Below are positions 16,122 to 60,060 of a stretch of DNA of 64,000 bases, piece by piece. The position numbers were made by a program, and so were the translations under genes. The notes beneath the pieces were generated by a model. It searched no databases, was not told the origin of the DNA, and saw only the letters and a program-made list of their open reading frames with translations. Positions within the stretch are counted from its first letter, which is position 1, and each line of letters opens with the position of its first letter. The stretch is from Octopus vulgaris (Eukaryota). The DNA is taken from assembly GCA_951406725.2 (NCBI GenBank), contig OX597833.1, forward strand, positions 45,694,001 to 45,758,000. The letters run 5' to 3'.

Positions 16122-17392
16122 TCAGGTCATCCCGTAAGTTCTGTCCGAATTTTGAATAAAGTAAATAAGTGATCAAATCTTATATTTAATTGAAATTTAA
16201 TCATCAATTTACTTTCCCTGATTATCAATGACTTCCTTCCATCTATTTACAAGCTTTTTAATCTCATCAATATAAAGCTCTTTTGGTTTCAATGCGAAGA
16301 AATCTGAAATGTCAGTTTCGACCTCCTCCTGGCTTGCGAAGGTTATGTCCCCCAAATGATTCTGTAAACTACGAAACAAATGGTAGTCTGAAGGAGCAAG
16401 ATCGGGAGAATAGGGTGGATGAGGAATTTTTCCCAACCAAGCTCTTCGATATTCTGTGATGTGATTTTTGCAGTGTGGGGTCGCGCATTGTCTTGATGAA
16501 ACATCACTCCTTTTCGATTCACTAAAGCGGGTCTTATTTTCTTCAAAGCTTGGTTCAAACGCTCTAATTGCTGACAGTAGACTTGAGCATTGATTGTTGC
16601 ATTAGGTGGTAACAATTCGAAGTGAATTACTCCTTTGCAATCTCACCAGATAGAGAGAAGAACCTTTTTCCCATGAAGTTCCCTTCTCGTTTGTGGTTGA
16701 GCTTTTTCCCTTTTACCAAGCCACTGTTTACGACGTTTAACATTTCGATACAAGATCCATTTTTCGTCACCAGTCACAAGTTTATCCAAAAAGGGTGAAA
16801 TGAATTCGCGAGTATGGAGAGGAGAGCAGATGTCAACTCGAGATTTGCGGTTACTTTTGCACAATTCATGAGGCACCCATTTTCCAAGTTTAGGAACCTT
16901 TCCAAGTTGTTGAAGATGACGATGTGTTCATCGTATGGTTTGAATTAAGCTTTATTACCAATTCTTCAACTGATAATGCAGGATTTTCTTCAAGTAATGC
17001 CTCAAGAAGCTTATCATCAAACTCAACTGGACGTCCTGTTCAATCCTCATTTTCAAGGCTGAAATCTCCACTTCTGAATCTTGCAAACCATCTTCAGCAA
17101 GTTCTTTCATTCAAGCATTCTTTCCCATAAACTGAGTGAATGCTTCGAGTCATTTCGTAGGCAGAGTTTCCTTTTGTACGCATAATGCTTTATTGCCTCA
17201 AATGCTCTTTGGATACTTCCACGTTTTAATCAAAGAAATTTTAATTCGATTATTCTGTAAATTAATATTTGATTAGTTTAAATGTACACAAATGCATAAA
17301 AATAATTTTTAATTCCATTAGACATTCTAAAATACTATTAAAGTTCATTCAATTTAAAAAAAGGTAAAATCGGACAGAACTTATGGGATGAC

Positions 17393-21255: not shown

Positions 21256-21388
21256 TCATCTCTTATTTTTCACATCTCTTATTTTTTCACATCTCTTAAT
21301 TTTCACATCTCTTATTTTTCACATCTCTTATTTTTCACATCTCTTATTTTTCACATCTCTTATTTTTCACATCTCTTATTTTTCACAT
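21256..21388. repeat. Minisatellite (cacatctcttattttt-type unit, 16-18 bp, ~8 copies)
   Basis: Tandem copies are directly visible and abut the left end of the large array. Confidence 0.9.
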
Positions 21389-21403
21389 ATATATATATAT
21401 ATA

Positions 21404-24400
21404 TCATTTTCTGTTGCACGCTGAGCTGCCGTTCGTTGTTGGCTATATGCACGGCGTACATTTCTTTGACATTAGTTTTCTGTTGCACGCTGACCTGCCT
21501 TTCTTTGTTGGCTATCTGCACGTCGTGTCTTTGGCTGTAAGTTTCTGTTGCACGTCGAGCTGCCGTTTTTGTTGGCTAACTAGACGTCGTGCATTTCTTT
21601 GGCATTTATTTTCTGTTGCACGAGGACCTGACTTTCTTTGTTGGCTATCTGCACGTCGTGCATTACTTTGACTTTCATTTTCTGTTGCACAACAAGCTGC
21701 CCTTCTTTGTTGGCTATTTACACGTAGTGAATTCCTTTGATTTTCATTTTCTGTTGCACACCGAGCTGCCTTTCTTTGTTGGCTATCTACACCTCGTGCA
21801 TTACTTTGAATTTCATTTTCTGCTGCAAGTCTATTTGCCTTTGTTGGCTATCTACACATCGTGTATTACTTTGGCTTTATTTCCTGTTTCACATCGAGCT
21901 GCCGTTCTTTGTTGGCTATCTACACGTCATGCATTCCATTGATTTTCATTTTCTGTTGCACGCTGAGCTGCTGTTCGTTGTTGGCTATCTACACGGCGTG
22001 CATTTCTTTGGCATTCGTTTTCTGTTGCACGCTTACCTGCCTTTCTTCCTTTGTTGGCTATCTACAAGACGTGCATTACTTTGACTTTAATTTTCTGTTG
22101 CACGAGGAGTTGCAGTTCATTTTTGGCTATCTACACGTCGTGCATTCCATTGATTTTCATTTTCTCTTGCACGCTGAGCTGCCGTTCGTTTTTGGCAATC
22201 TACACGGCGTGCATTTCTTTGCCATTCATTTTTTGTTGCACGCTGACCTGCCTTTCTTTGTTGGCTATAAACACGTTGTGCAAAACTTTGACTTTCATTT
22301 TCTGTTGCACGAAAAGCTGCTGTTCTTTGTTGGCTATCTACACGACGTGTATTTCTTTGATTTTCATTTTCTGTAGCACGAGGATATGCCATTGATTGTT
22401 GGCTATCTACACGATGTGCATTCCTTTGATTTTCATTTTCTGTTGCACGCCGAGCTACCGTACGTTGTTGGCTATGTACATGTCGTGCATTTCTTTGGCT
22501 TTCATTTCCTGCTGCACGTCGAGCTGCCGTTCTTTTTTTACTATCTACACGTCGTGCATTTCTTTGGCATTCATTTTCTGTTGCACGAGAGTCTGCTGTT
22601 CTTTGTTGGCTATCTACACGACGTGCATTCCTTTCATTTTCATTTTCTGTAGACGAGGAGTTGCCGTTCATTGTTGGCTATCTACACGTGGTGCATTCCT
22701 TTGATTTTCATTGTCTGTTGCACGACGTGCTTCATTCTTTGTTGGCTATCAACACGACGTGCATTCCTTGCATTTTCATTTTCTGTAGCACGAGGAGTTG
22801 CTGTTCATTTTTGGATATCTACACGTCGTGAATTCCTTTGATTTTCAATTTTGTTGCACGCTGAGCTGCCGTTCGTTCTTGGCTATCTACACGGCGTGCA
22901 TTTCTTTGTTGGCTATCTACACGGCATGCATTTATTTGACTTCCATTTTGTGTTGCACGGTGACCTGCCTTTCTTTGCCTTCTATCTACACGGCGTGCAT
23001 TTCTTTGGCATTCGCTTCCTGTTGCACGATGACCTGCCTTTCTTTGTTTGGTATCTACACGGCGTGCATTTCTTTGGCATTGATTTTCTGTTGCACGCTA
23101 GCCTGCCTTTTCTTCGTCGGCTATCTACACTTTGACTTTCATTTTCTGTAGCACGAGCAGATGCTGTTCATTTTTGGCTACATACACGTCGTGCAATCCA
23201 TTGATTTTCATTTTCTATTGGACGCTAAGCTGCCGTTCTTTGTTGGCTATCTACACGACGTGCATTCCTGTGATTTTCATTTTCTATAGCACGAGGAGTT
23301 GCTGTTCATTGTTGGCTATCTACACGTCGTGCACTCTTTTAATTTTCATTATCTGCTGCAAGTCGAGATGCCGTTCTTCGTTGGCTATCTACATGTCGTG
23401 CATTTCTTTGGCTTTCACTTCCTACTACACGTCGAGCTGCCGTTCTTTGTTGGCTAACAACACGGTGTGCATTTCTTTGGCATTCATTTTCTGTTGCACT
23501 GTGACCTGCCGTTCTTTGTTGACTATCAACACGTCGTGCATTACTTTGACATTCATTTTCTGCTGCACAACAAGCTGCTGTACTTTGTTGGCTATCTACA
23601 CGCCGTGCATTCCATTGATTTTCATTTTCTGTTGCACGCTGAGCTGCCGTTCGTTGTTGGCTATATACACGGCGTGCTTTTCTTTGGCATTAGTTTTCTG
23701 TTGCACGATGACCTGACTTTCTTTGTTGGCTATCTACACGACATGCATTCCTTTGATTTTCATTTTCTGTAGCACGAGGAGTTGCTGTTCATTTTTGGAT
23801 ATCTACACGTCGTGAATTACTTTGATTTTTAATTTTGTTGCACGCTGAGCTGCCCTTCGTTCTTGGCTATCTACACGGCGTGCATTTCATTGGCATTCAT
23901 TTTCTGTAATACGCCGAACTGCCTTTCTTTGTCGGCTATCTACTCGTCGTTTATTCCTTTGATTTTCATTTTCTGTTGCACGCTGAGCTGCCGTTCATTA
24001 TTGGCTATCTACACGGCGTGCATTTTTTTGGCATTCATTTCCTGTAGTACGCTGAACTACCTTTCTTATTTGGCTATCTACACGACGTGCATTTATTTGG
24101 CATTATTTTTCTGTTGCACGATGAATTGCCTTTCTTTGTTGGCAATCTACACGGCATGCATATATTTGACTTTCACTTTGTGTTGCACGGTGACCTGCCT
24201 TTCTTTGCCTGCTATCTACACGGCGTGCATTTCTTTGGCATTCGCTTCCTGTTGCACTATGACCTGCCTTTCTTTGTTGGCTATTTACACGACGTGCATT
24301 TCTTTGGCATTGATTTTCTGTTGCACGCTAGCCTGCCTTTTCTTCGTTGGCTATCTACACGTCGTGCAATACTTTGACTTTCATTTTCTGTTGCACGAGG

Positions 24401-27400
24401 AGTAGCCGTTCATTGTTGGCTATCTACACGTCGTGCACTCTTTTGGTTTTCATTTTCTGCTCCAAGTACAGCTGCAGTTCATCGTTGGCTATCTACACGT
24501 CGTGCATTTCTTTGGCATTCATGTTCTGGTGCACGCTGACCAGCCTTTCTTTGTTGGCTATCTACACGTTGTGCAATACTTTGACTTCCATTTTCTGTTG
24601 CACGACAAGATGCTGTTCATTTTTGGCTATCTACACGTCTGTCATTGCTTTGATTTTCATTTTCTGTAGCACGCTCAGCTGCCGTTCATTATTGGTTATC
24701 TACACGGCGTGCATTTCTTTGGCAAACATTTTTTGTTGCACGACGTGCTTCAGTTTTTGTTGGCTATCTACACGGCGTGCATTTCTTTGGCAAATATTTT
24801 TTGTTGCACGACGTGCTTCAGTTCTTTATTGGCTCTCTACACGACGTAAATTCTTTTGATTTTCATTTTCTGTAGCACGCTGAGCTGCCGTTCATTATTG
24901 GTTATCTACACGGCGTGCATTCTATTGGCATTCATATCCTGTAGTACGCTGAACAACCTTTCTTTGTTGGCTATCTACACGTCCGTCGTGCAATACTTTG
25001 ACGTCCATTTTCTGTTGCACGACAAGATGCTGTTCATTTTTGGCTATATGCACGTCTAGCTATACTTTGACTTTCCTGTTCTCTTACACGACAAGCTGCT
25101 GTTCTTTGTTGGGTATCTACACGACGTGCATTTCTTCGGCAAACATCTTTTGTTGCACGACGTGCTTTAGTTCTTTATTCGCTATCTACACGACGTGAAT
25201 TCCTTTGAATTTCATTTTCTGTAGCATGCTGAGCTGCCGTTCATTATTGGTTATCTACACGGCGTGCATATCTGTGGCAAACATCTTTTGTTGCACGACG
25301 TGCTTCAGTTCTTTATTGGCTATCTACACGGCGTGCATTTCTTCGGCAAACATTTTTTATGGCACGACGTGCTTCAGTTATTTATTGGCTATCTACACGA
25401 CGTGAATTCCTTTGAATTTCATTTTCTGTAGCACGCTGAGCTGCCGTTCATTATTGGTTATCGACACGGCGTGCATTTCTTTGGCATTCATATCCTGTAG
25501 TTCGCTGAAAAACCTTTTTGTGTTGGCTATCTACACGGCGTGCATTTATTTGGCATTAGTTTTCTGTTGCTCGATGTATTGCCTTTCTTTGATGGCTATC
25601 TACACGACGTTGATTTCTTTGAATTTCATTTTCTGTAGCATGCTGAGCTGCCATTCATTATTGGTTATCTACACGGCATGCAATTCCTTGGCAAACATTT
25701 TTTGTTGCACGACGTGCTTCAGATCTTTGTTGGTTATCTACACGGCGTGCATTACTTTAGCAAACATTTTGTGTTGCACGAGTTGCTTCAGTTCTTTATT
25801 GGCTATCTACACGGCGTGCATTTCTTTGGCAAACATTTTTTGTCGCACGACGTGCTTCAGCTCTTTATTGGCTATCTACACGACGGGAATTCCTTCGATT
25901 TTCATTTTCTGTAGCACGCTCAGCTGCCGTTCATTATTGGTTATCTACACGGTGTGCATTTCTTTGGCAAACATTTTTTGTTGCACGAGGTGCTTCAGTT
26001 CTTTGTTGGCTATCTACACGGCGTGCATTTCTTTGGCAAATATCTTTTGTTGCACGAGTTGCTTCAGTTCTTTATTGGCTATCTACACGGCGTGCATTTC
26101 TTTGGCAAACATTTTTTGTTGCACGACGTGCTTCAGTTCTTTATTGGCTATCTACATGACATGAATTCCTTTGATTTTCATTTTCTGTAGCTGCTGAGCA
26201 ACCGTTCATTATTGGTTATCTACACGGCGTGCATTTCTTTGGCTAACATTTTTTGTTGCACGAGGTGCTTCAGTTCATTTTTGGCTATCTACACGGCGTG
26301 CATTTCTTTGGTAATCATTTTTTGTTGCACGAGGTGCTTCAGTTCTTTATTGGCTATCTACACGGCGTGCATTTCCTTGGCAAACATTTTTTGTTGCACG
26401 AGGTGCTTCAGTTCTTTAGTGGCTATCTACACGTCGTGAATTCCTTCGATTTTCATTTTCTCAGCTGCCGTTCATAATTGGTTATCTACACGGCGTGCAT
26501 TTCTTTGGCAAACATTTTTTGTTGCACAACGTGCTTCAGTTCTTTATTGGCTATCTACACGACGTGAATTCTTTTGATTTTCATTTTCTGTAGCACGCTG
26601 AGCTGCTGTTCATTATTGGTTATCTACACGGCGTGCATTTCCTTGGCATTCATATCCTGTAGTACGCTGAACAACCTTTCTTTGTTGGCTATCTACACGT
26701 CGTGCAATACTTTGACGTCCATTTTCTGTTGCACGACAAGATGCTGTTCATTTTTGGCTATATGCACGTCTTGCTATACTTTGACTTTCCTGTTCTCTTA
26801 CACAAGCTGCTGTTATTTGTTGGGTATCTACACGACATGCATTTCTTCGACAAACATCTTTTGTTGCACGACGTGCTTTAGTTCTTTATTGGCTATCTAC
26901 ACGACGTGAATTCCTTTGAATTTCATTTTCTGTAGCATGCTGAGCTGCCGTTCATTATTGGTTATCTACACGGCGTGCATATCTGTGGCAAACATTTTTT
27001 GTTGCACGACGTGCTTCAGTTCTTTGATGGCTATCTACACGGCGTGCATTTCTTTGGCAAACATCTTTTGTTGCACGACGTGCTTCAGTTCTTTATTGGC
27101 TATCTACACGGCGTGCATTTCTTCGGCAAACATTTTTTATGGCACGACGTGCTTCAGTTATTTATTGGTTATCTACACGACGTGAATTCCTTTGAATTTC
27201 ATTTTCTGTAGCACGCTGAGCAGCCGTTCATTATTGGTTATCGACACGGCGTGCATTTCTTTGGCAAACATCTTTTGTTGCACGACGTGCTTCAGTTTTT
27301 ATTGGCTATCTACACGGTGTGCATTTCTTTGGCAAACATTTTTTGTTGCACGACGTGCTTCAGTACTTTATTGGCTATCTACACGACGTGAATTCCTTTG

Positions 27401-30400
27401 ATTTTCATTTTCTGTAGCATGCTGAGCAACCGTTCATTATTGGTTATCTACACGGCGTGCATTTCTTTGGCTACCATTTTTTGTTGCACGAGGTGCTTCA
27501 GTTCATTGTTGGCTATCTACACGGCGTGCATTTCTTTGGTTATCATTTTTTGTTGCACGAGGTGCTACAGTTCTTTATTGGCTATCTACACGGCGTGCAT
27601 TTCCTTGGCAAACATATTTTTTTTGCACGACGTGCTTCAGTTCTTTAGTGGCTATCTACACGTCGTGAATTCCTTCGATTTTCATTTTCTGTAGCACGCT
27701 CAGCTGCCGTTCATTATTGGTTATCTACACGGCGTGCATTTCCTTGGAAAACATTCTTTGTTGCACGAGGTGCTTCAGTTCTTTATTGGCTATCTACACG
27801 TCGTGAATTCCTTTGATCTTCATTTTTTGTAGCACGCTGAGCTGCTGTTCATTATTGGTTATCTACACGGCGTGCATCTCTTTGGCATTCATATCCTGTA
27901 GTACGCTGAACAACCTTTCTTTGTTGGGTATCTACACGGCGTGCATTTATTTGGCATTACTTTTCTGTTGCTCGATGTATTGCCTTTCTTTGATGGCTAT
28001 CTACACGGCGTTCATTTCTTTGGCATTCATGTTCTGGTGCACGCTGACGGGTCTTTCTTTGTTGGCTATCTACACGTTGTGCAATACTTTGACGTCCATT
28101 TTCTGTTGCACGACAAGATGCTGTTCATTTTTGGCTATATGCCCGTCTTGCTATACTTTGACTTTCCTGTTCTCTTACACGACAAGCTGCTGTTCTTTGT
28201 TGGGCATCTACACGACATGCATTCCTTTGATTTTCATTTTCTCTAGAACGAGGAGTTGCCGTCCATTGTTGGTTATCTACACGTCGTGTATGTCTGACTT
28301 TCATAGTTTACTGGTAGTCGAGCTCCCGTTATTCGTTGGCTATCTACACGTCGTGCATTACTTTTACTTTCATTTTCTGTTGCACAACAAGATGCTGCTC
28401 AGTTTTGGCTATATACACGTCTGTCATTGCTTTGATTTTCATTTTCTGTTGCAAGCCGAGCTGAAGTTCGTTGTTTGATATCTACACGGCGTGCATTTCT
28501 TTGGCAAACATTTCTTGTTGCACGACGTGCTTCAGTTCTTTATTGGCTATCTACACGACGTGAATTCCTTTGATTTTCATTTCTGTAGCACGCTGAGCTG
28601 CCGTTCATAATTGGTTATCTACACGGCGTGCATTTCTTTGGCAAGCATTTTTTGTTGCACGACGTGCTTCAGTTCTTTGTTGGCTATCTACACGGCGTGC
28701 ATTTCTTTGGCAAACATCTTTTGTTGCACGACGTGCTTCAGTTCTTTATTGGCTATCTACACGACGTGAATTCCTTTGATTTTCATTTTCTGTAGCATGC
28801 TGAACTGCCGTTCATTATTGGTTAGCTACACGGCGTGCATTTCTTTGGCTAACAATTTTTGTTGTACGAAGTGCTTCAGTTCTTTGTTGGCTATCTACAC
28901 GGCGTGCATTTCTTTGGTAATCATTTTTTGTTGCACGAGGTGCTTCAGTTCTTTATTGGCTATCTACACGGCGTGCATTTCCTTGGCAAACATTTTTTGT
29001 TGCACGAGGTGCTTCAGTTCTTTAGTGGCTATCTACACGTCGTGAATTCCTTCGATTTTCATTTTCTCAGCTGCCGTTCATAATTGGTTATCTACACGGC
29101 GTGCATTTCTTTGGCAAACATTTTTTGTTGCACAACGTGCTTCAGTTCTTTATTGGCTATCTACACGACGTGAATTCTTTTGATTTTCATTTTCTGTAGC
29201 ACGCTGAGCTGCCGTTCATTATTGGTTATCTACACGGCGTGCATTTCTTTGGCCTTCATATCCTGTAGTTCGCTGAACAACCTTTCTTTGTTGGCTATCT
29301 ACACGTCGTGCAATACTTTGACGTCCATTTTCTGTTGCACGACAAGATGCTGTTCATTTTTGGCTATATGCACGTCTAGCTATACTTTGACTTTCCTGTT
29401 CTCTTACACAAGCTGCTGTTATTTGTTGGGTATCTACACGACATGCATTTCTTCGGCAAACATCTTTTGTTGCACGACGTGCTTTAGTTCTTTATTGGTT
29501 ATCTACACGACGTGAATTCCTTTGAATTTCATTTTCTGTAGCATGCTGAGCTGCCGTTCATTATTGGTTATCTACACGGCGTGCATATCTGTGGCAAACA
29601 TTTTTTGTTGCACGACGTGCTTCAGTTCTTTGATGGCTATCTACACGGCGTGCATTTCTTTGGCAAACATCTTTTGTTGCACGACGTGCTTCAGTTCTTT
29701 ATTGGCTATCTACACGGCGTGCATTTATTCGGCAAACATTTTTTATGGCACGACGTGCTTCAGTTATTTATTGGTTATCTACACGACGTGAATTCCTTTG
29801 AATTTCATTTTCTGTAGCACGCTGAGCAGCCGTTCATTATTGGTTATCGACACGGCGTGCATTTCTTTGGCAAACATCTTTTGTTGCACGACGTGCTTCA
29901 GTTTTTATTGGCTATCTACACGGTGTGCATTTCTTTGGCAAACATTTTTTGTTGCACGACGTGCTTCAGTACTTTATTGGCTATCTACACGACGTGAATG
30001 CCTTTGACTTCCATTTTCTGTAGCACGCTGAGCAGCCGTTCATTATTGGTTATCTACACGGCGTGCATTTCTTTGGCATTCATATCCTGTAGTTCGCTGA
30101 AAAACCTTTCTTTGTTAGCTATCTACACGGCGTGTATCTATTTGGCATGAGTTCTCTGTTGCTCGATGTATTGCCTTTCTTTGATGGCTATCTACACGGC
30201 GTTCATTTCTTTGAATTTCATTTTCTGTAGCATGCTGAGCTGCCGTTCATTATTGGTTATCTACACGGCATGCATTTCCTTGGCAAACATTTTTTGTTGC
30301 ACGACGTGCTTCAGATCTTTGTTGGTTATCTACACGGCGTGTATTACTTTGGCAAACATTTTGTGTTGCACGACGTGCTTCAGTTCTTCATTGGCTATCT

Positions 30401-33400
30401 ACACGACGTGAATTCCTTTGATTTTCATTTTCTGTAGCATGCTGAGCAACCGTTCATTATTGGTTATCTACACGGCGTGCATTTCTTTGGCTACCATTTT
30501 TTGTTGCACGAGGTGCTTCAGTTCATTGTTGGCTATCTACACGGCGTGCATGTCTTTGGTTATCATTTTTTGTTGCACGAGGTGCTACAGTTCTTTATTG
30601 GCTATCTACACGGCGTGCATTTCCTTGGCAAACATTTTTATTTGCACGACGTGCTTCAGTTCTTTAGTGGCTATCTACACGTCGTGAATTCCTTCGATTT
30701 TCATTTTCTGTAGCACGCTCAGCTGCCGTTCATTATTGGTTATCTACACGGCGTGCATTTCCTTGGAAAACATTCTTTGTTGCACGAGGTGCTTCAGTTC
30801 TTTATTGGCTATCTACACGTCGTGAATTCCTTTGATCTTCATTTTCTGTAGCACGCTGAGCTGCTGTTCATTATTGGTTATCTACACGGCGTGCATCTCT
30901 TTGGCATTCATATCCTGTAGTACGCTGAACAACCTTTCTTTGTTGGGTATCTACACGGCGTGCATTTATTTGGCATTACTTTTCTGTTGCTCGATGTATT
31001 GCCTTTCTTTGATGGCTATCTACACGGCGTTCATTTCTTTGGCATTCATGTTCTGGTGCACGCTGACGGGTCTTTCTTTGTTGGCTATCTACACGTTGTG
31101 CAATACTTTGACGTCCATTTTCTGTTGCACGACAAGATGCTGTTCATTTTTGGCTATATGCCCGTCTTGCTATACTTTAACTTTCCTGTTCTCTTACACG
31201 ACAAGCTGCTGTTCTTTGTTGGGCATCTACACGACATGCATTCCTTTGATTTTCATTTTCTCTAGAACGAGGAGTTGCCGTCCATTGTTGGTTATCTACA
31301 CGTCGTGTATGTCTGACTTTCATAGTTTACTGGTAGTCGAGCTCCCGTTATTCGTTGGCTATCTACACGTCGTGCATTACTTTTACTTTCATTTTCTGTT
31401 GCACAACAAGATGCTGCTCAGTTTTGGCTATATACACGTCTGTCATTGCTTTGATTTTCATTTTCTGTTGCAAGCCGAGCTGAAGTTCGTTGTTTGATAT
31501 CTACACGGCGTGCATTTCTTTGGCAAACATTTCTTGTTGCACGACGTGCTTCAGTTCTTTATTGGCTATCTACACGACGTGAATTCCTTTGATTTTCATT
31601 TCTGTAGCACGCTGAGCTGCCGTTCATAATTGGTTATCTACACGGCGTGCATTTCTTTGGCAAGCATTTTTTGTTGCACGACGTGCTTCAGTTCTTTGTT
31701 GGCTATCTACACGGCGTGCATTTCTTTGGCAAACATCTTTTGTTGCACGACGTGCTTCAGTTCTTTATTGGCTATCTACACGACGTGAATTCCTTTGATT
31801 TTCATTTTCTGTAGCATGCTGAACTGCCGTTCATTATTGGTTATCTACACGGCGTGCATTTCTTTGGCTAACAATTTTTGTTGCACGAAGTGCTTCAGTT
31901 CTTTGTTGGCTATCTACACGGCGTGCATTTCTTTGGCAAACATTTTTTGTTGCACGAGGTGCTTCAGTTCTTTATTGGCTATCTACACGGTGTGCATTTC
32001 TTTGGAAAACATTTTTTGTTGCACGAGGTGCTTCAGTTCTTTATTGGCTATCTACACGACGTGAATTCCTTAGATCTTCATTTTTTGTAGCACGCGGAGC
32101 TGCCGTTCATTATTGGTTATCTACACGGCGTGCATCTCTTTGGCATTCATATCCTGTAGTACGCTGAACAACCTTTCTTTGTTGGCTATCTACACGGCGT
32201 GCATTTCTTTGGCACTATTATTTTGTTGCTCGATGTATTGCCTTTCTTTGATGGCTATCTACACGGCGTTCATTTCTTTGGCATTCATGTTCTGGTGCAC
32301 GCTGACGGGTCTTTCTTTGTTGGCTATCTACACGTTGTGCAATACTTTGACGTCCATTTTCTGTTGCACGACAAGATGCTGTTCATTTTTGGCTATATGC
32401 CCGTCTTGCTATACTTTGACTTTCCTGTTCTCTTACACGACAAGCTGCTGTTCTTTGTTGGGCATCTACACGACATGCATTCCTTTGATTTTCATTTTCT
32501 CTAGAACGAGGAGTTGCCGTTCATTGTTGGTTATCTACCCGTCGTGTATGTCTGACTTTCATAGTCTACTGGTAGTCGAGCTGCCGTTATTCTTTGGCTA
32601 TCTACACGTCGTGCATTACTTTGACATTCATTTTCAGTTGGACCCCAAGCTGCCGTTCTTCGTTGGCTATCTACACGTCGAGCATTACTTTTACTTTCAT
32701 TTTCTGTTGCACAACAAGATGCTGTTCATTTTTGGCTATATACACGTCTGTCATTGCTTTGATTTTCATTTTCTGTTGCAAGCCGAGCTGAAGTTCGTTG
32801 TTTGCTATCTACACGGCGTGCATTTCTTTGGCAAACATTTCTCGTTGCACGACGTGCTTCAGTTCTTTATTGGCTATCTACGCGACGTGAATTCCTTTGA
32901 TTTTCATTTTCTGTAGCACGCTGAGCTGCCGTTCATAATTGGTTATCTACACGGCGTGCATTTCTTTGGCAAACATTTTTTGTTGCACGACGTGCTTCAG
33001 TTCTTTGTTGGCTATCTACACGGCGTGCATTTCTTTGGCAAACATCTTTTGTTGCATGACGTGCTTCAGCTGTTTATTGGCTATCTACACGACGTGAATT
33101 CCTTTGATTTTCATTTTCTGTAGCACACTGAGCTGCCGTTCATTATTGGTTATCTACACGGCGTGCATTTCTTTGGCAAACATTTTTTGTTGCACGACGT
33201 GCTTCAGTTCTTTATTGGTTATCTACACGACGTGCATTCCTTTGGCTTTCATTTCCTGCTTCACGTCGAGCTGTTGTTCTTCGTTGGCTATCTACACGTC
33301 GTGCCTGTCTTTTGCATTCATCCTCTGTTGCACGATGACCTTCCTTTGATTTTTATTTTCTGTAGCACGCTGAGCTGCCGTTCATTATTGCTTATTTACA

Positions 33401-36400
33401 CGGCGTGCATTTCTTTGGCAAATATTTTTTGTTGCACGACGTGCTTCAGTTCTTTAGTGGCTATCTACACGTCGTGTATTCCTTTGATTTTCATTTTCTG
33501 TTTCACGCCGATCTGCCGTTCTTTGTTGGCTATCTACACGGCGTGCATTTCTTTGGCAATAATTTTTTGTTGCACGCTGATCTACTTTTCTTTGTTGGCT
33601 ATGTACACGTTGTGCATTACTTTGAATTTCATTTTCTGTTGCACGACGTGCTTCAGCTCTGTGTTGGCTATCTACACGGCGTGCATTTCTTTGGCATTAG
33701 TTTCCTGTTGCATGCTGACCTGCCTTACTTTTTTGGCTATCTACACGTCGTGCTTTGACTTTCATCTTCTGTTGCACGACAAGCTGCTGTTCGTTGGTTG
33801 CTATCTACACGACGTGCATTCTTTTGACTTTTATTTCATGCTGTAAGTCGGGCTGCCGTTCTTCGTTGGCTATCTACACGTCGTGTATTACTTTGGCTTT
33901 AATTTTCTGTTGCACGACAAGCTGCCGTTCTTTGTTGGCTACTACACGGCGTGCAATACTTTCACATTCATGTTGCACAACAAGCTGCTGTTCTTTGTTG
34001 GGTATCTACACTACGTGCATTCCTTTCATTTTCCTTTTCTGTAGCACGAGGATTTGCCATTCATTGCCGGCTATCTCCACGTGGTGCATTCCTTTGATTT
34101 TAATTTTCTGTTGCACGCCGAGCTGCCGTTCGTTGTTTGCTATCTACACGTCATGCACTTCTTTGGCATTCATTTTCTGTTACACGTTGACCCGCCTTTC
34201 ATTGTTGGCTATCTACACGTCGTGCATTACTTTAGCTAAAATATTTTGTTTGCACGAAGTGCTTCATTTCTTTGTTGTCTATCTACACGACGTGCAATCC
34301 TTTGATTTTCATTTTCTGTAGCACGAGAAGTTGCCGTACATTGTGGGCTATCTACACGTCGAGCATGTCTTTGACCTTCATTGTCTGCTGCAAGTCGAGC
34401 TGCCGTTATTCGTTGGCTATTTACACGGCGTGCATTTCTTTGCCATTCGTTTTCTGTTGCACGCTGAGCTGCTTTTCTTTGTTGGCTATTTATACGACGT
34501 TGTTCCCTTGATTTTCATTTTCTGTTGCACGCCGTGCTGCCGTTCATTGTTGGGTATCTACACGGCGTGCATTTCTTTGGCATTCATTTCTTTGTTGTCT
34601 ATCTACACGACGTGCATTCCTTTGATTTTCATTTTCTGTAGCACGAGAAGTTGCCGTACATTGTGGGCTATCTACACGTCGAGCATGTCTTTGACCTTCA
34701 TTGTCTGCTGCAAGTCGAGCTGCCGTTATTCGTTGGCTATTTACACGGCGTGCATTTCTTTGGCATTCACTTTCTGATGCACGCTGACCTGCATTTCATT
34801 GTTGGCTATCTACACGGCGTGTATTACTTTGACTTTCATATTCTGTTTGCACGTTGCGCTTCATTTCCTTGTTGGCTATCTACACGACGTGCAATCCTTT
34901 GATTTTCATTTTCTATAGCGCAAGGTGCTGCCGTTCGTTGTTGGCTATCTACACGTCGTGCATTTCTTTAGCTCTCATCTCCCACTGCCCGTCGAGCTGC
35001 CGTTCTTCGTTGGCTAACTACACGGCATTCATTTTTTCTTGCTCGAAGAGCTGTTTGCTATCTACTCGTCGTGCATTTCTTTGCCTTGTATTTTCTTTTG
35101 ACGACGAGCGGCCGTTGTTTGTTGGCTATCTACACGGCCCGCATTTCTTTGGCTATCACTTCCTGTCGTACGACGGCCTGCCGTTCTTTGTTGGCTATCT
35201 ACACGTCGTTCAATTCGTTGACTCCTATTTCATGTTGCACGACGAGCTGCCGTTCTCTGATGGCTATCTACACGTTGTGCATATATTTGGCTTTCATTTA
35301 TTGTTGCACGTCAAGCTGCCTTTCTTCGTTGGCTATCTACACACCATGCATTTCTTTGGCATTCATTTTCTATTGCACGTCGGCCTGCCGTTCTTTATTG
35401 GCTATCTACACGGCGTGCATTTCTTTAACTTTCATTTCCTATTGCACGAATACATATCGTTCCTTGTTGGCTATTTACATTTCTTTCAATCTCGTGTTCT
35501 GTTGCCCGACGAGCTGTCCTTCTTCATGCATTTCCTTGGCTTTTACATTCAACTGCCCGTCAAGCTGCCGTTGTTTTTATCTATCGACACGTCGTCAATT
35601 TCTCTGGCTTTAATTTTTGTTGCACGACGAGCTGCCGTTCTTTGACGTCGTGCATTACTTTGACTTTCATTTTCTGTCGCACGTTGAGGTGCCGTTTATT
35701 TGTTGACTATCGAAACGTCGTGCATTTCTTTGGCATTCATTTTCTGTTGCACGAAGAGCTGCCTTTCTTTGTTGGCTATCTACACGATATGCATTTCATG
35801 GGCTTTCCTGCTGCACGCCGAGCTGCTGCTTGTGTTGGATATCTACTCGACGTGTAATTTTGCCTTTCGTTTTCTGCTGCACAAGGAGCTGACGTTCTGT
35901 GTTGGCTATCTACACGCCGTGCATTTTTTGATTCTCATTTTCTGTTACACGACGAGCTGCCCTTCTTGGTTGGCTATCTACAAATCGTGCAATTCTTTGG
36001 CCTTCATTTGCTGTCGCTCAACATGCTGCCGTTTTTTGTTGGCTATGTACACGCCGTGCATTTCTGTGGCTTTTATTTTCTGTTGCACCAAGAGCTTTTG
36101 ACTATTTACACGTCCTGCAATTTTTTGGCTTTCATTTCCTGTTGCACGAAGAGCAGCCGTTTTTTTATGGCTATCTACACGTCGTGCATTTCTTTGGCTT
36201 TCATTTCCTGTTGCACGACGGCCTGCCGTTCTTCGTTGGCTATCAACACGGCGAGCATTTCTTTGACTTCAATTTTCTGTTGCACGAAGAGCTGTTGGCT
36301 ATCTACACGTCGTGCATATCTTTGACTTTCATTTTCTGTTGCACCTCGAACTGCCGTTCTGTGTTGGCTATCTATACAACGTGCATTCCTTTGGCTCGCA

Positions 36401-37290
36401 TTTCCGGTGCACGAAGGGCTGCCGTTATTTAATGGCTATGTACACGTCGTGTATTTCTTTAGATTTCATTTTGTGTTGCACGACGAGATGCCGTTCTTTG
36501 TTTACTATCTACACGTCGTGCATTACTTTGGCTTTTATTTTTTGTTGCACGTTCACCTGCCGTTTTATTTGGCTATCTACATGTCGTGCTTTTCTTCGAC
36601 TTTCATTTTCTGTTGCACGATGAACTGCCGTTCTTTGTTGACTACTTATACGTCGTGCATTTCATTGGCTTTCATTTTTTGTTGCACGACGAGCTGTCGT
36701 TCTTTGTTGGCTATCTACACGTCGTGCAATTCGTTGACTTTCATTTTATGTTGCACGACGAGCTGTCGTTCTTTGTTGGCTATCTACACGTCGTGCAATT
36801 CGTTGACTTTCATTTTATGTTGCACGACGAGCTGTCGCTCTTTGTTGGCTATCTACACGTCGTGCAATTCGTTGACTTTCATTTTATGTTGCACGACGAG
36901 CTGTCGTTTTTTGTTGGCTATCTACACGTCGTGCATTTCTTTGGCTTTTATTTTCTGTTGCTCGAAGAGCCGTTGGCTATCTACACCTCGTGCATTTCTT
37001 TGGCTTTCATTTTCTGTTGCACGACGCGAGGCCGTTTTTGTTGGCTATCTACACGTCCTGCATTTCTTGATTCTCATTTTTTGTTTCACGATGACTGCCG
37101 TTGTTTGTTGGCTATCTTCGCGTCGTAAATTTCTTTGGCTTTCATTTCCTGTTGCACGATGACCAGCCGTTTTTTTTTGTTGGCTATCTACACGTCGTGC
37201 TTTTCATTGGCTTCCATTTTTTTGTTGCACGACGAGGTTGGCTATCTTCACGTTGTGCATTTCTTTGGCTTTCATTTTCTGTTATTCTGC
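21404..37290 (-). repeat. ~16 kb tandem array of a 69-bp unit (~230 copies) encoding a degenerate 23-aa STPR-like repeat on the minus strand
   Basis: The + consensus gttggctatctacacgtcgtgcatttctttggctttcattttctgttgcacgacgagctgccgttcttt is 69 nt. ORF 22117-22671 (-) shows the 23-aa period NARRVDSQQRTAARRATENESQR. Confidence 0.95.
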
Positions 37291-37456
37291 CTGTCTGCAT
37301 TTCGTGCATTTCTTCGATGTTCGGTTGCAGATGTACATCGAACCTTCTTTCTTTGTCGATCATCTGGCAGCCGTTCGCGTTTCTTATCTTCGTTTTCTGC
37401 TGCGCGTCCTGAGTTTCTTTGGTGTTCGTGTTTTGATGCTCTTTTTTAGGAGACAT
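37184..37456 (-). pseudogene. Unique N-terminus of the repeat-protein ORF (MSPKK...), frameshifted
   Basis: ATG at 37456. Adding one A to the A-run gives MSPKKRASKHEHQRNSGRAAENEDKKRERLPDDRQRKKVRCTSATEHRRNARNADRQ, which grades into the repeat. Confidence 0.6.
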
Positions 37457-37520
37457 TTTTTGATAAGAAATATCAGTATGTAGTAGTCAAATGAAATTAC
37501 AAATGCTTATCTTGTCAGTG

Positions 37521-37725
37521 TTAGAGCTGAATTTTTGACGCTATATATACAGGAATGCAAGGCAAGGCGTTGTGTGATAGAGAAGTTGGAATGCAATCTT
37601 GGGATATTATCTTGATGTTTCTGACATCTCTTTTTATCATACCCAGGGCACCCACAATAACAGGAACAGCTCTCGCTTTAAGATGCCACATCTTTTGTAT
37701 TTCAATTTCCAGATCCTTATTTGGG
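37521..37725 (-). mobile_element. Short 3' fragment of an RLE-type (R4/Dong-like) non-LTR retrotransposon
   Basis: KDLEIEIQKMWHLKARAVPVIVGALGMI is a typical C-terminal RLE motif. Duplicate at 46101-46305. Confidence 0.7.
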
Positions 37726-38009
37726 TGTGTCAATTTGAATAACTTACTAAAAATCTAATTTGGTAGTGAAATTATTTTGCCTTCTTACTCCCTTACTTCA
37801 GATATATATATATATACCAAAATGGATTAACAAAACTCTAACTTACATCAGTTTTATCTTAAATTATCAATATGGTGTTGTTTTGAAACAATAACTGAAA
37901 ATTTAGATGAAAAACTGATTAGACTCAAAATATTATTCATATATTATCTTTTAATTGGTTAAATGAATCTTATATTATCTTTAAATTGGTTAAATGAATT
38001 TTACTCTTT

Positions 38010-39315
38010 TCAGATATTCACAAGGTGTTAATACTGAAGACTAGAGGCCAGATGTTATCCCACTTGAGCTTGTTAATTGGTACACCGAAAGAGATTCCTG
38101 TATCAGAGCTTCCAACAGTGAGAGACAGTTTAAGACCTGGGTTACTACTTCGGTTACAAAATTCCAAGGACAGAAGGAACTATACAGATTAGGTACTCAT
38201 ACATGATATAATACCCCACCTTCGCGACAGTGCACAATTCAAACCGCGAGTGATCATACAGTGTCGAACAACTGAGATAAAGCTAATGAGATTGTGGCGG
38301 AAAGTAGTGCACACATCACATGGTAAATGAAAAATGCTTTTCTACACTCATTTGATACACTGTTCGATATTTTGAGCTGCAAGTGTTCAATAGTTTTGTG
38401 TTTAAAAGAGGATTGTTCTCCCACTTGTAAGAGAGGAAATCACTCCCACATTGACTGTATTTGTCCTCCCTCGTGAAAAGAAGATACCTTTTCTAGAGCT
38501 AGATTCCATAAGCTCACCGAGGACAAAAACAGGAGGGCAAGGCAGTATGCAAATGGGCCGAACTAATTATAAAGAAATAAGAGACATATTTCTACTGAAA
38601 AAAGGAAAAAGCTTTGGTAAAGAGAGGGAAGAAAAGAAGAGAATGAAGAGTGAAGTCATGCAAAGAGAAGAACAGCACAGCCATGATGTTTATCAGTTGT
38701 TTGATAATGAAAAAAATGAAGTAATGTCAGATGAAAATTCTAAAGAATCTTCTGAAGCCATACCAAAGAGGAAAATATAATAAAAAAAAACATTTTAAAA
38801 TTTGCATTAGCTAGTATTCGTCACCATATCGAACTCCATGTTGCTGTTGAAATTGCAACTGCCGCTTGGATAGATGCAAGCCTCATCAGTCAATGGGATT
38901 CATCCTTGGTTATAGATCATAGACTGAGATATCTGATCAGCAAGAGAAAGAATTAAAAGGAGGGCTCTTCTGTCTTTTGTTTGAGGGAAGAATAGACGAA
39001 ACCAAAGTTGTGGTTGAAGTAGGTGGAATTTCCAGAAAATTTCCAGGTCTAATTAAAGAAGAGCACTACACTGTCTGCTCTGAACCTGGTGGTTAGTTTT
39101 TGTTTCATTTTACACTTGAAGCTGAATTGGAAATGAAAAAATATGCAGAGGTAATTGCTGAAAATATTTTATTCTGGCTTCAAGAGAGAAGGCTTGAAAA
39201 TTGAGTGCGAGTAATTGGTGGGGATTCAACAGCAGGCTGGAAGGGAGCTGTAATGAGTTATTTAGAGAAAAAACCTTGATAGAAGACTTATTTGGATTGT
39301 ATGTGATGAATTAAG
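38010..39315 (+). mobile_element. Decayed hAT-superfamily (hATm-like) transposase
   Basis: Fragments TLFDILSCKC...HIDCICP.REKKIPFLEL, LFEGRIDET...KEEHYTVCSEPGG and IGGDST.GWKGAVMSYLEKK, broken by stops and frameshifts. Duplicate at ~46590-47895. Confidence 0.6.
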
Positions 39316-39556
39316 CACCAATTGCGTACTGCGGTCGATCTAATCGACTGGCTCCCTCCCACCAAAAATTCGGCTCTTGAGCATAGAGGAGAAAAAAATT
39401 TGTCCATGTTGTTTGTAAATAGCGATTAAAACTTACAGTGAAAACAATAGCGATTGAACTTAAAGTGAAAACAATATTGTCTGAAAAATGAAAGTGAAAA
39501 GAATACAGAGTGAGTGAGAGATATATATATAGAGAGAACTTGCTAGTTAGACAAAT

Positions 39557-39635
<79 letters not shown>

Positions 39636-40082
39636 GACATAGATAGATAGATACAGAGAGATAGATATAGAGATGGATAGAGAAATATCTAGAGATTTAG
39701 AGAGGTAGAAATAGACAGAGATGGATAGAGAGATGTAGACGTCACTGACGCTAGAAAACTGAAAGTAAATATTTTAAAAACTCTCAAGGACGTGAATCTA
39801 ATATAAAAAACATTTTCCTGACCAATTGATATGAGAGGACAATCAATTTCTGAAAGTTATGTCGCAAAGAGTTACCTCCCTTCTTCCCGTAACCCAGGAA
39901 TGGATGTTTTCTGTCACATTGGGCCTGTTACTCATTACGTGAAAAATTTTAAGAGTCTAAAACCATCCATGAAACATTAGTAATGTATTTTCCTAGCTTG
40001 GAGAATATCAGTTGAAAAATACGGCCGTTATAATCTTTTACACACAGACACAGAGGACGGGATTCATATTATATATATATAC

Positions 40083-40141
<59 letters not shown>

Positions 40142-40234
40142 TATATTCTTTGTACCTATGTATTTATAAAACGTTAAAATATCAAACAAGAATTTGAGAC
40201 ATTTAAAATTTATCTAAAACCATAAACTAATGAA

Positions 40235-40384
<150 letters not shown>

Positions 40385-40441
40385 ATATCAATCTATCTAT
40401 CTAGCTAGCTAGCTCACTCTCTCCCTCCCTCTCCCTCTCCC

Positions 40442-40475
<34 letters not shown>

Positions 40476-40476
40476 T

Positions 40477-40692
40477 TCTTTAACTACCCACAAGGGGCTA
40501 AACACAGAGGGAACAAACAAGGACAGACAAAGGGGATTAAGTCGATTACTCGTAACTGGTACTTAATTTATCGACCCCGAAAGGATGAAAGGCAAGTCGA
40601 CCTCGGCGGAACTTGAACTCAGAACGTAACGGCAGACGAAAAACGGCCACGCATTTCGCCCGGCGTGCTAACGTTTCTGCCAGCTCGCCGCC
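40477..40692 (-). mobile_element. SINE family B (Nin-domain-like)
   Basis: ctggtacttaatttatcgaccccgaaaggatgaaaggcaagtcgacctcggcgga resembles the Nin-SINE central domain. Duplicate at ~49038-49268. Confidence 0.65.
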
Positions 40693-40753
40693 TTGTCATT
40701 ATATATATATATATATTATATATGTGTATGTTGTGTACGTATGTATGTTTACC

Positions 40754-40790
<37 letters not shown>

Positions 40791-41301
40791 TACACACATG
40801 CGCACGCACATATGCATACACATACATGTAAGTACATATGCACACACATGTACATATATATACACATATGTACATATATGTATATATAGATGTAATTATA
40901 TGTACATATAGACGACCGTATGCTCATATGAGTGTAAGAATACATGGTATGTTAGAATACTTTGTAAGCAATATCATTACACGTAATTCGTATGTACTAA
41001 TACTAAAAGTACTAAACAGCATATCCTCTCTAGAAACATGCTCCATTTAAAACATTCATATTCACACGCCTACATATCAAATGTACTTTTGGTATCCATG
41101 TCACTAAAAGGAAGTCTAATGAGTAAATGCTAATTATTTGATGGACTTTAATTAGATACTATGCTAACGAATGCCGCAAATTCATGGCATTGTTATTTGA
41201 TCTCTTGTGAAATATTACTCAAGCTACACGTTCATATGAGGATGACGGTGTGTAAATGAATGTGTTTGGAATTGGCTGTGGTCCAGGAGAGAGTCGAACG
41301 G

Positions 41302-42500
41302 AACAGACATTTCGCTGGCTTCTATCATGAGGTGTTAGGATAATGCTGCGACAGATGATAAAGAATCAGTGAGTATAGCAAAACATACACGCACACGCAC
41401 AAACACAGACTACACACGCACCGCTCAAACACAGACTACACACACACACACATATACACACACAGAGTATTATATATATATATATACGTTTATGTATTCG
41501 TTTTGCAAGATACTTGGTGTGTGGTGTGTGGGGTTTGTGTGCTTGTGTTCCATTCTAGTTTTCTATTTAGGCTAGGTTTATCTTCTACTATGTGTGTAGC
41601 TTCCGTAATTTGTCTAAGCGTTGCGTCCGTTCTGTGTGGACGAGATTTTAACTTCTATGTTGTTGAGTGGGCCCCCATGTTCTCGCTCGACGTGCTGGTA
41701 TAGCACCGATGAACTCTTCTCTTCCTTAAGTTCCCTCCAATGCTCTTTTACCCGCTCTCCTATGTTCCGTACTGTCTCCCCTACGTACCTCATTGTCTTG
41801 TTTCTGTACCGTCCCTCTGTACATCTTAGACTACATTCTTAGCTTTACAGTTTGTTAGTGGGGCTAAGTCTACATACAATACAGTCGCTATCATTACAGG
41901 AGGTTCTATTAAAAGGATAGGTTTTACCGAGTAAGGATTTGATAGGGTTACCTGGCGTTTTTACAACCTTAATTCATAGATGAATCTTGTCTAGAGCCCT
42001 TCTAAAGCGGTACGCCAGTTCGCCTCTAGGGGTGGTTCCGACGAACATGACACTCTGGATTTTGTGGCTACCATACCATAAGTTGGCCTTCCCTATTTTC
42101 TTCTTAGTCCTTTCAATGGTATTCCATGACTTGCTCCTATTGAATAGGCAAATCCCATTCTTATCGTTACGTATGATAGTTTCAAATTTCCTCATGGCTC
42201 CTTTATTTATTCTGATCCTTTCTCTATGGCTGTATCCTGAGAACTGCTTGCGGTGAACGAAGTGTTGTATGAGTCTCTTTAACTCTGTTGAGTCGCACAT
42301 GCGGGAAACATATCTCATTACTCTGATGAGGCCTGTCATCAATATATTAAGTTTAATATTGTCCACGATAGCTGAGTTCCAGCAGATCAGGTATTTGGAG
42401 GCCATAGGTTATTGCTTTTTACTCATAAGGTATTGGAATCTTATATGTATACCATTCTGCCTAAATAATGGATCTACAAATAGAATATCCCTGCGTATCT
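41302..42500 (-). mobile_element. Penelope-like remnant (RT C-terminus, GIY-YIG and degenerate 3' hammerhead-like motif)
   Basis: ORF 41974-42405 contains SVMFVGTTPRGELA. Minus-strand MRYVGETVRNIGERVKEH...LYQHVEREH lies at ~41670-41795. A degenerate hammerhead-like core lies at 41302-41336. Duplicate at ~49867-51067. Confidence 0.7.
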
Positions 42501-42554
42501 GACATCTATTTTCATTCCTCCACCTCACTCTCTATTTCGTCTCTTATCTAAATT

Positions 42555-42654
42555 NNNNNNNNNNNNNNNNNNNNNNNNNNNNNNNNNNNNNNNNNNNNNN
42601 NNNNNNNNNNNNNNNNNNNNNNNNNNNNNNNNNNNNNNNNNNNNNNNNNNNNNN
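42555..42654. other. Assembly gap (100 N)
   Basis: Run of exactly 100 N. Confidence 1.
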
Positions 42655-51119
<8,465 letters not shown>

Positions 51120-57917: not shown

Positions 57918-58626
57918 TACTAGAGGAAGGCAGAAAAGTGTATTGTATGGAATGTCTGAACATGGAAAAGAAACTATATCGTAATGAAAAATTTGTTCGG
58001 ATGGCTTCAGTACAGTTATGCTATAACTCAGGAACATCGAAAATATAATACAGATAGTGTTAAGCAAATAAAAGAACGGAATGGCATTGAATGCACGTCT
58101 TTCGGTAATCGGTTGATTAACACATAACGTTCAACAGTTACTTATATATGTGTAAGACTTATTATTTAGACAAAGAGGGAAGTGGAATGTACGAAGTTGT
58201 CTTTCCCTTCTATTACCGATTATAACAGAAACCATGAATCTGATTGTGTTGTCTGCAACGAGTCGTCGAAAGCCTGCATCTTTATAATAATCTACTTCGT
58301 GGTGAATTTCTTGACTTGAATGGGAGGTTCCTACTTCTAATAAAACTGATTCTAAATAAGTTACAAAAAAAAGATCATGGCTGACGTAAATCAAATACTT
58401 TGCTTCGTATTAATTAGAAATTGAGGCCCGTCTTTCTTAATACATACATCGATCCACTATACACATCGATGCATTAAAGTTAACATACATGAGAGAAGGA
58501 ATATACAGTTGACTTACTGCAACTGATTTAGTTGTTATTTAAAAACAAAGAACTTACATCATCTCCTGTCAAACTCTACACATCAGACTGTAAGAATCTG
58601 TAAGAATCAATAATAGTCATACAGAA

Positions 58627-60060
58627 ATGCCAAGCTTTTTCAGACGTATTAACCGTTTTTATTCATGTCGTTGGAGGACGTGTTACGCTTGTACTGTAGC
58701 TTTAATTCTGCTACAGTCTTTAAGAGTTGATATAAGTATGGCTTTTGTTTGCATGTTGAAAACGCCCAATCGGACAAATAATGAAAATAATTTTACACGA
58801 ACTAACGAACATTGTTCTTCTTTAAACAACCATAAAATAATGCAACATTTTGAAGGTGAGTTTGAATGGAGCAACACGTTACAATCAAATATCTTAGCAT
58901 GTTACTTTTATGGGTATATTTCAACTAATATTTTAGCTGGAATATTGGTAAACAAATATGGTGGGAAAAAAGTTCTAGGAAGCTCACTTCTCTTCGCATC
59001 ATTTCTGACCATTCTCCACCCAAGTTTATCTCGAATAAGTGGTTACTTAACAATTGTCCTAAGAATATTAACAGGTATGGTCTCGGCACCGATGTTCCCA
59101 GCAATCCTATCGCTAATGGCACGTTGGGCCCCACCATCTGAGAAAGACCTATTGATTGGTATTACTTTTACAGGTCAAGTATTGGGCAATATTGCAGGTT
59201 TTGTAATATTCGGTTACCTTTGTGAGTATGGATTTGATAATGGATGGAGTTCTATATTTTATACAAGTGGTGTAACGACGTTGATGTTTAGTTTTGTGTG
59301 GTATTATGCTGTTTACGATAATCCAGATCTCCATCCTACTATCAGCCAAGAAGAACATGCTTATTTAAACAGAACTATAATATGTGAAAGACTACCTAAA
59401 AATATACCTTGGCGACGGATGCTTTCTTCGCCTGCAATTTGGGCTATTGTTTTCGGTTTGTTTGGTTATGATTGGGGCTCCATTTCCCTCCAGGTATTGC
59501 TGCCTCTGTATTTAAAAGAAGCCTTAAACGTTAATGCAACATCCAACGGTATAATTTCCTCAGCTCCTTCGGTTGCAGAAGTCATTGTCCTACCATTATG
59601 GGGAAAATTGGCCGATATTTTGCGTTCAAAGAATTATATGTCAACTCACTCGGTGCGTGTTTTATTCCAAACCGTTGCTCTAGTTGCTTGTGCAAGTCTA
59701 CTGATTATCATGGGATACCTCAGATGTGACCAACTCATTCAAATATATATTTTCTTGTTTCTTTGTGGTGCATTCCTAGCATTTAGTTGTAGTGGAGTTA
59801 TTGCCAACAGCATTGACATTGCTCCCAGTTATGTCGGCGTAATCTTTGGACTTACTAACACAATTTGTGCATCATCAGGCAGCTTTTCTTCCTTGTTCGC
59901 AAAAGCTCTGACACCAAATGGCACACAAAGCGAATGGCAGATCGTATTTGCTTTGTATGGCGCTGTTCTTGTCTTAGGTGCAATATTCTTTGCAGTGTTG
60001 GTAAGAACAGAAATTCAAGACTGGGCAAGACCTGAGGGATTCGAACCAGAGGAAGCATGA
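58627..60060 (+). CDS. Intronless SLC17-family MFS anion transporter (sialin-like), 477 aa
   Basis: Uninterrupted ORF with ~12 hydrophobic segments and SLC17 motifs: [17 protein letters not shown]...[70 protein letters not shown]. Confidence 0.95.

Follow-up and report, generated by a model that had tools for sequence, protein, structure and literature searches.

A 64,000-nucleotide stretch of the Octopus vulgaris genome (assembly GCA_951406725.2, contig OX597833.1, positions 45,694,001 to 45,758,000 of the forward strand; here called the window) carries a long tandem array of a 69-bp unit, whose origin in the STPR-type repeats of a Helitron transposase is the subject of this report. Tandem Repeats Finder (TRF) detects a period of 69 bp that begins at 21404 and ends at about 37240-37280; wrap-around alignment divides 21404-37279 into 236 segments, which, less two partial segments at the array ends, makes 234 full units on the minus strand. 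An earlier reading of the letters alone (the original prediction) had put the array at about 230 copies of 69 bp over 16 kb, had translated a 23-residue peptide from one minus-strand frame, and had named TRF as the check on period and copy number; TRF and alignment bear this out (69 bp, ~234 units), and the predicted 23-mer is the column-majority peptide of the units. In 176 of the 234 the length is exactly 69 bp, and 23 residues is the period of the STPR domain (PF21107).

The source of the array can be located through its 5' edge, designated the head: an ATG followed by the first units. The genome searched comprises 2.8 Gb in 227 contigs; a query of 36500-37500 finds the head at no fewer than 35 other distinct places, and the best 14 of these at least 35 matches were examined in detail. 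A RepHel match lies downstream on the same strand in seven of the 14, upstream in one (L080), and is absent from six. Residues matched, of 1473, number 1268 in L067, 988 in L077, 883 in L072, 436 in L069, 290 in L078, 140 in L066 and 121 in L073. Five relatives retain 74-85% DNA identity through head and Rep. Twelve of the 14 have about 1-8 units, one has a 77-bp array, and one has no units above threshold. That is, relatives carry the head and a few units and then run into Rep/PIF1; the window's array is up to 83% identical in DNA to such heads and units, and belongs to this family. The family's 5' end is of the TC type, about 700 bp before the ATG; its 3' end is of the CTAG type, with CTAG intact in three of five aligned copies. 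By the criteria of the HELIANO study (PMC11417382), the parent family classifies as a canonical HLE1 Helitron.

What survives at the locus is a fragment. The 5' tip, the unit that closes the repeats (cap unit), Rep, helicase and the 3' end are missing. The original prediction had seen no Rep or helicase motif downstream; tblastn with three intact RepHel frames finds no Rep (HUH) or PIF1 helicase match at E<=1e-3 anywhere in the window. Neither the TC 5' end nor the hairpin and CTRR 3' end (insertion between A and T) was found in the window, though both are seen in relatives, and the family's upstream 5' stretches match the window at microsatellites only. About 130 bp of 5' non-coding DNA is retained. 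At its far end the array halts mid-unit against an (AT)n run, beyond which the sequence is nearly unique and non-Helitron. The locus thus has neither the RepHel frame nor the ends of an intact HLE1 element (the element on contig C30, described below, does show the 3' end); its DNA homology is to a dispersed family that has both RepHel and Helitron ends. It classifies as a Helitron-derived fragment, not an intact Helitron, that descends from an STPR domain without itself passing for one.

The head is broken as well. A start reading MSPKK was predicted to be unique and to grade into the repeat; the ATG is indeed at 37456 on the minus strand, but the head recurs at the other places already counted, and the ATG frame never enters the repeat, running for 90 codons, mostly outside the repeat frame, to a stop. 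An A-run after codon 4-5 is one base shorter than in relatives L068 and L070. This break, together with stops and frameshifted units, agrees with the predicted disruption of the copy. In sequencing runs that bear the labels of organisms A, B and C, gap-free contigs span the head and the junction between it and an adjoining high-copy repeat (6, 7 and 16 other letters, respectively), and in runs X2 and X5 array-type letters adjoin the head. The break is therefore not private to the assembly and predates the individual assembled; the three organisms are distinguished by label and may be close kin. Over 37240-39400, the pieces listed from one run guessed to be RNA are a diverged 86-base piece at the head, pieces of high-copy repeat, and one exact 202-base contig upstream.

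Likeness to the STPR domain is clearer in relatives than in the window. Units of relative L008 score 37.5 bits on the Pfam STPRs profile (cut-off 27), whereas those of L011 score 20.1, below it. The profile check proposed earlier came out negative for the window's own units: none of four open minus-strand stretches matches Pfam STPRs at E<=1, and none reaches the gathering cut-off. A profile built from nine other STPR-positive stretches (eight of them from one family) recognizes six of 205 array pieces at E<0.01 and none of the 205 reversed. Residues E1, R6, R9 and R20 are common in the units; these are four of the seven matches given in the original prediction, and the available part of PMC4856987 names them as conserved. 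The conserved set is incomplete: E1 stands in 120/224 and R9 in 194/230, T/S2 in 7/230, and T/S2, L10, M13, S14, Y16, A17 and L21 are nearly absent. Counts at residues that contact DNA in FMBP-1 are 1/230 for L10, 0/224 for M13 and 0/218 for Y16. Units with T/S2 and L10 do occur in relatives. A search of solved structures returned no match for the window stretch; a match of L008 to ThreeFoil was spurious. A protein search with L008 for longer proteins yielded 0/1081 candidates at E<=0.001, which is weak evidence.

If the peptide likeness were due to chance, the array would be an ordinary 69-bp satellite, as the missing Pfam and solved-structure matches might suggest, and the original prediction had set this out as its own refutation. 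The possibility can be given practically no weight: the array has direct DNA homology to Helitron heads and units that continue into Rep/PIF1, and the STPR-derived profile recognizes a few array pieces but no reversed ones. The predicted origin, in an STPR-type repeat at a Helitron N-terminus, stands on those relatives, which share head and units and then run into Rep/PIF1, and on the Pfam match of L008. STPRs also precede the transposase domains in another Helitron family, with an intact 1727-codon frame (STPRs, Helitron_like_N and PIF1) and at least 40 copies at 99% identity; 24 of 120 database homologues, among the matches listed, carry PF21107. On these comparisons, an STPR at the front of RepHel is a general trait.

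Coding capacity has been lost. In the STPR register, 130 of the 234 units contain stops, 50 have lengths not divisible by three, and the longest clean run is seven units; the array cannot encode the repeat protein. Nor do the units evolve as coding sequence. The earlier proposal to compare rates by codon position was carried out on 114 disjoint nearest pairs, and no constraint appears: changes number 198/173/168 by position, 25 involve a stop, and the ratio of nonsynonymous to synonymous change (pN/pS) is 0.94 (p=0.63), or 1.32, 1.10 and 0.80 by depth of the pair. The units drift neutrally; the 23-codon period was inherited from the transposase and is not maintained by selection.

The inner layout, absent from the original prediction, is one of old flanks around a recently duplicated core (Table 1). 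Core duplications are nested; examples are 25 units repeated at an offset of 3,019 bp (99%) and a further 20 at 2,606 bp (98%), and the re-amplified blocks span 1.2-3 kb. Since stops stand in 88 of 127 core units, stop-bearing units were themselves amplified. The outer units (n=107) have a median column divergence of 9.2%, and the head differs by 9.0% from the family column majority; given this similarity, the first expansion probably dates from about the time of the insertion. The array thus likely grew in two rounds, as read from these divergences: an early expansion near the age of insertion, and a recent re-amplification of the core.

Table 1. Features of the array and its surroundings (window coordinates)
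Feature	Position	Strand	Remarks
(AT)n run and 16-bp tandem repeat x8	21257..21403	.	At array end; unmatched to Helitron family
Old 3' flank, units 187-234	21404..24664	-	Breaks off mid-unit; cap unit, Rep, helicase and 3' hairpin-CTAG end all lacking
Recently re-amplified core, units 60-186	24665..33360	-	With higher-order duplications; stops in 88 units; median nearest-neighbour identity 0.986
Largest higher-order block, 25 units	30364..32085	-	Repeated 44 units (3,019 bp) on at 27344-29066, 99% identical
Old 5' flank, units 1-59	33361..37279	-	Stops in 25 units, length not divisible by three in 22; median nearest-neighbour identity 0.90
Helitron RepHel head: ATG and first two STPR-type units	37280..37456	-	One-base frame break near start; ~20-bp deletion in unit 2
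Helitron 5' non-coding remnant	37457..37587	-	Aligns with 12/13 relatives; family's first ~700 bp, including TC end, missing
Short piece of very high-copy repeat	37600..37750	-	Abuts truncated Helitron 5' part; summed contig depth 13,000-120,000 in three DNA runs
Assembly gap, 100 N	42555..42654	.	Lies before the second copy
Duplicate of 34075-42554, with part of the array, the head and DNA upstream of it	42655..51119	-	99.04% identity

A second head and partial array, overlooked in the original prediction, lie behind the assembly gap. For the first 4,635 bases the two copies agree letter for letter, and almost every difference between them lies in a microsatellite tract or in homopolymers; a false assembly duplication, from unmerged overlap of contig ends, is likely. 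Its presence 5 kb away, with the 98-99% identity of the best core blocks, raises the suspicion that near-identical core blocks are artefacts of the same kind and inflate the copy number. This is improbable: the core blocks diverge from one another by 1-6%, recur at many different offsets and are nested, whereas the duplicate is identical over 4.6 kb; moreover, most of the 107 outer units differ from one another, and artefact cannot account for the outer units.

Two further expansions were met elsewhere in the genome. At C4:160661559-160667544 (L070, 160661271-160667750), a member of the same family has the head, about 78 copies of a 77-bp (69+8) unit, and the family's 3' region. At C30:18776595-18784502, in a member of another Helitron family the head precedes a tandem run of about 115 STPR units of 69 bp, followed by a PIF1 fragment and a hairpin-CTAG end; the whole (C30:18776216-18785500; L064, L065) is a young, internally deleted Helitron whose array units match at 97%. 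Divergence from the array's own majority is 3.3% on C4 and 1.5% on C30, as against about 9% in the window. The 77-bp period of the C4 array breaks the frame; therefore, an open frame was not needed for expansion. In the C30 array several frames are open for 600-1,580 codons, and an internal stretch of 892 codons scores 250.7 bits on STPRs; the ATG frame is shut after 63 codons. The C4 and C30 expansions are independent. The count of three expanded arrays is a lower bound without a denominator, as they were met in passing and not by systematic survey.

One might suppose that the window's array is what is left of a giant STPR protein gene of about 100 units, once functional and domesticated from a Helitron, whose product wrapped long stretches of DNA before the gene died. 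The long open stretch on C30 is compatible with this, as are a synonymous excess among the oldest variants (weighed below), an expansion as old as the head, and the existence of host STPR proteins (PMC4856987, as far as available). We consider it very improbable: nearest pairs are unconstrained at every depth, stops are among the common variants (3/25), the DNA-contact residues of FMBP-1 are nearly gone, the C30 ATG frame closes early, the C4 array is out of frame, and the STPR proteins described in the available part of PMC4856987 have 3-7 repeats only. Of the two alternatives first offered, a satellite born from a coding repeat stands and the relic of a giant modular protein falls, as no relative has a long in-frame array, the units drift neutrally and hold stops, and the C4 period is 77 bp. 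The C30 locus is better suited than the window for testing whether a giant STPR protein exists.

A role without translation has also to be considered, in which the array is kept as functional DNA or RNA, by way of hairpin-forming units or as a platform for chromatin or for bound proteins. At 36680-36886, three nearly identical units form 10-bp hairpins on folding (z=-4.7), and more than one labelled organism has the head and first units. Still, this is highly improbable. The median folding z of 100 dereplicated units is -0.37 (18 below -2); the apparent covariation between columns 27 and 60 is lost on dereplication (43/104 against 37.3 expected, p=0.13); stem columns show almost no extra conservation (0.109 vs 0.119); and relatives and both sister arrays do not fold (z -1.9 to +1.1). 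On the evidence of folding, dereplicated covariation and relatives, a hairpin-driven or structure-selected monomer is rejected.

The explanation to which we would assign a probability of about 0.85 is that an old Helitron left its truncated 5' part here as the array, within which a single STPR-type unit of 69 bp came to be present about 234 times, without coding ability and likely by neutral growth and decay. The locus is probably functionless. A family copy with few units would have inserted here; early on, one unit type would have multiplied to about 100 copies, with slippage or unequal exchange among the repeats already present as the likely means and rolling-circle copying as a possible trigger; the 3' part and the 5' tip would have been lost and point mutations accumulated; and much later, unequal crossing-over would have duplicated mid-array blocks of 1.2-3 kb, stop codons included. 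The product has much of a satellite: a long head-to-tail array, higher-order structure, and evolution without coding constraint. It lacks the abundance and spread over several loci: all 65 of 65 genome matches of the array's signature 21-mer lie here, and in this assembly it is a single-locus, satellite-like array.

Several observations weigh against this explanation. Relative to the column majority, pN/pS comes to 0.68, as against 1.15 +/- 0.07 under neutral simulation; variation is slightly higher at third positions (0.147/0.145/0.170 by codon position); and synonymous changes make up 10 of the 25 commonest variants (5.7 expected, p=0.04), yet three of the 25 are stops. These are hints, in the pattern of variants, that the earliest unit types may have differed under coding constraint. 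A handful of third-position variants, all of them very common, account for the low majority-based ratio. One allele at each of columns 12, 27 and 60 is the family's own, and the typical variant has no consistent synonymous excess (median for transitions 0.019 synonymous vs 0.056 missense; for transversions 0.028 vs 0.019). Two plus-strand frames also give low values in the pair test (0.70 at p=0.003 and 0.77 at p=0.027, with neither correction nor a transition/transversion model), which we tentatively attribute to mutation bias. Fixed differences separate the window's unit from every relative sampled; therefore, the direct parent subfamily was not found among them. Finally, the mechanism of amplification was not itself observed.

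A broader proposal would make the STPR-coding unit of animal Helitrons a built-in expansion hotspot, with copying in mobile elements occasionally yielding 78-234 copies, as in the three independent arrays of this genome; young in-frame arrays could then transiently encode giant helical DNA-wrapping proteins and offer a route to host STPR factors and to new satellites. This is speculative, and in our judgement unlikely.

STPR-type repeats and Helitrons elsewhere in the genome merit separate mention. Within one young Helitron family (L043, L044, L049) the number of in-frame N-terminal repeats differs, so that STPR-type copy number varies among intact elements. The L039 family (e.g. C4:115357038-115362218) has at least 40 copies at 99% identity in the 5' part, with several frames open for 1,687-1,744 codons, and is probably an active autonomous Helitron. 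At C29:27.64-27.83 Mb, eight same-strand Helitron Rep matches lie in a span of 200 kb, where the elements form either a local cluster or a tandem array. The STPR unit of the L055-L063 family (e.g. G000:C22:22470439) keeps R6, R9, L10, M13 and Y16, the DNA-contact residues of FMBP-1 according to the available part of PMC4856987; these residues raise the question whether host STPR factors may have been domesticated from Helitrons. At C3:151344967-151372434 (L081:4878-5399, L054), three STPR matches stand about 13.5 kb apart; one, fetched whole, is a 174-codon frame of well-formed STPR units with no RepHel match within 10 kb. The trio is possibly a tandem cluster of host FMBP-1-like genes.

The surroundings of the array offer no host gene to which it might belong: a Pfam scan of 49 window open reading frames and others returned a mariner fragment, a weak GIY-YIG match, two weak matches below cut-off, and a major facilitator superfamily (MFS) transporter 21 kb off. 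The transporter (PF07690, E 1e-43) is a single 488-codon open frame at 58594-60060 (+); the mariner-type transposase fragment (PF01359), at 16346-16927 (-), is broken; and the GIY-YIG match at 61192-61662 (-), with E 0.0036, is below cut-off and perhaps a remnant of a Penelope-like element. The high-copy repeat beside the head has no Pfam match; its translation may resemble the C-terminus of a non-long terminal repeat (non-LTR) retrotransposon.

The locus offers a clean, datable satellite-like array born from one codon-exact transposase unit, with the parent family still in the genome. The two further expansions, which differ in age from each other and from this array and of which one is in frame and one out of frame, form a small natural series for comparing Helitron copying with ordinary unequal exchange. 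Such arrays also carry a warning for annotation: as on C30, they yield very long false open reading frames with strong STPR scores.

STPRs in Helitrons and Helitron-born satellites are both already published. Satellites from an STPR-coding unit were not found in the literature searched, most subscription papers and Repbase notes lying outside its reach; the available part of the HELIANO paper (PMC11417382) makes no mention of unit expansion, and that of an octopus repeat paper (PMC13282606) counts Helitrons without mentioning satellites. According to the former, STPRs belong to the extra domains found almost exclusively in HLE1 Helitrons. The parent family resembles these in its TC/hairpin-CTAG ends, its Rep-PIF1 frame and the STPR-type units at its start; the present copy differs in lacking ends and transposase and in having ~234 units instead of a handful. 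The STPRs of Bombyx FMBP-1 and ZNF821 (PF21107; PMC4856987, as far as available) share with the majority unit the 23-residue period and Glu1, Arg6, Arg9 and Arg20; the window's units, in contrast, have no Pfam match, nearly lack Thr/Ser2, Leu10, Met13, Ser14 and Tyr16, form no open frame, and number 234 against 3-7. Closer in form are arrays within rolling-circle elements. Cg_HINE of the Pacific oyster (PMC7492417, in part) is likewise a tandem array inside a decayed element; 'intermediate' arrays, in the available part of a review (PMC12628747), likewise have Helitron sequence on one side only; and DINE-TR1, cited there and known to us by title, is named among Helitron/Helentron-born satellites. 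Unequal exchange or aberrant rolling-circle copying has been proposed as the cause of Helitron-born arrays (PMC12628747). By their descriptions, arrays of these kinds make up the central repeats of non-autonomous elements and often occur scattered over the genome, whereas the window's monomer is one codon-exact unit of a transposase frame, amplified at a single locus.

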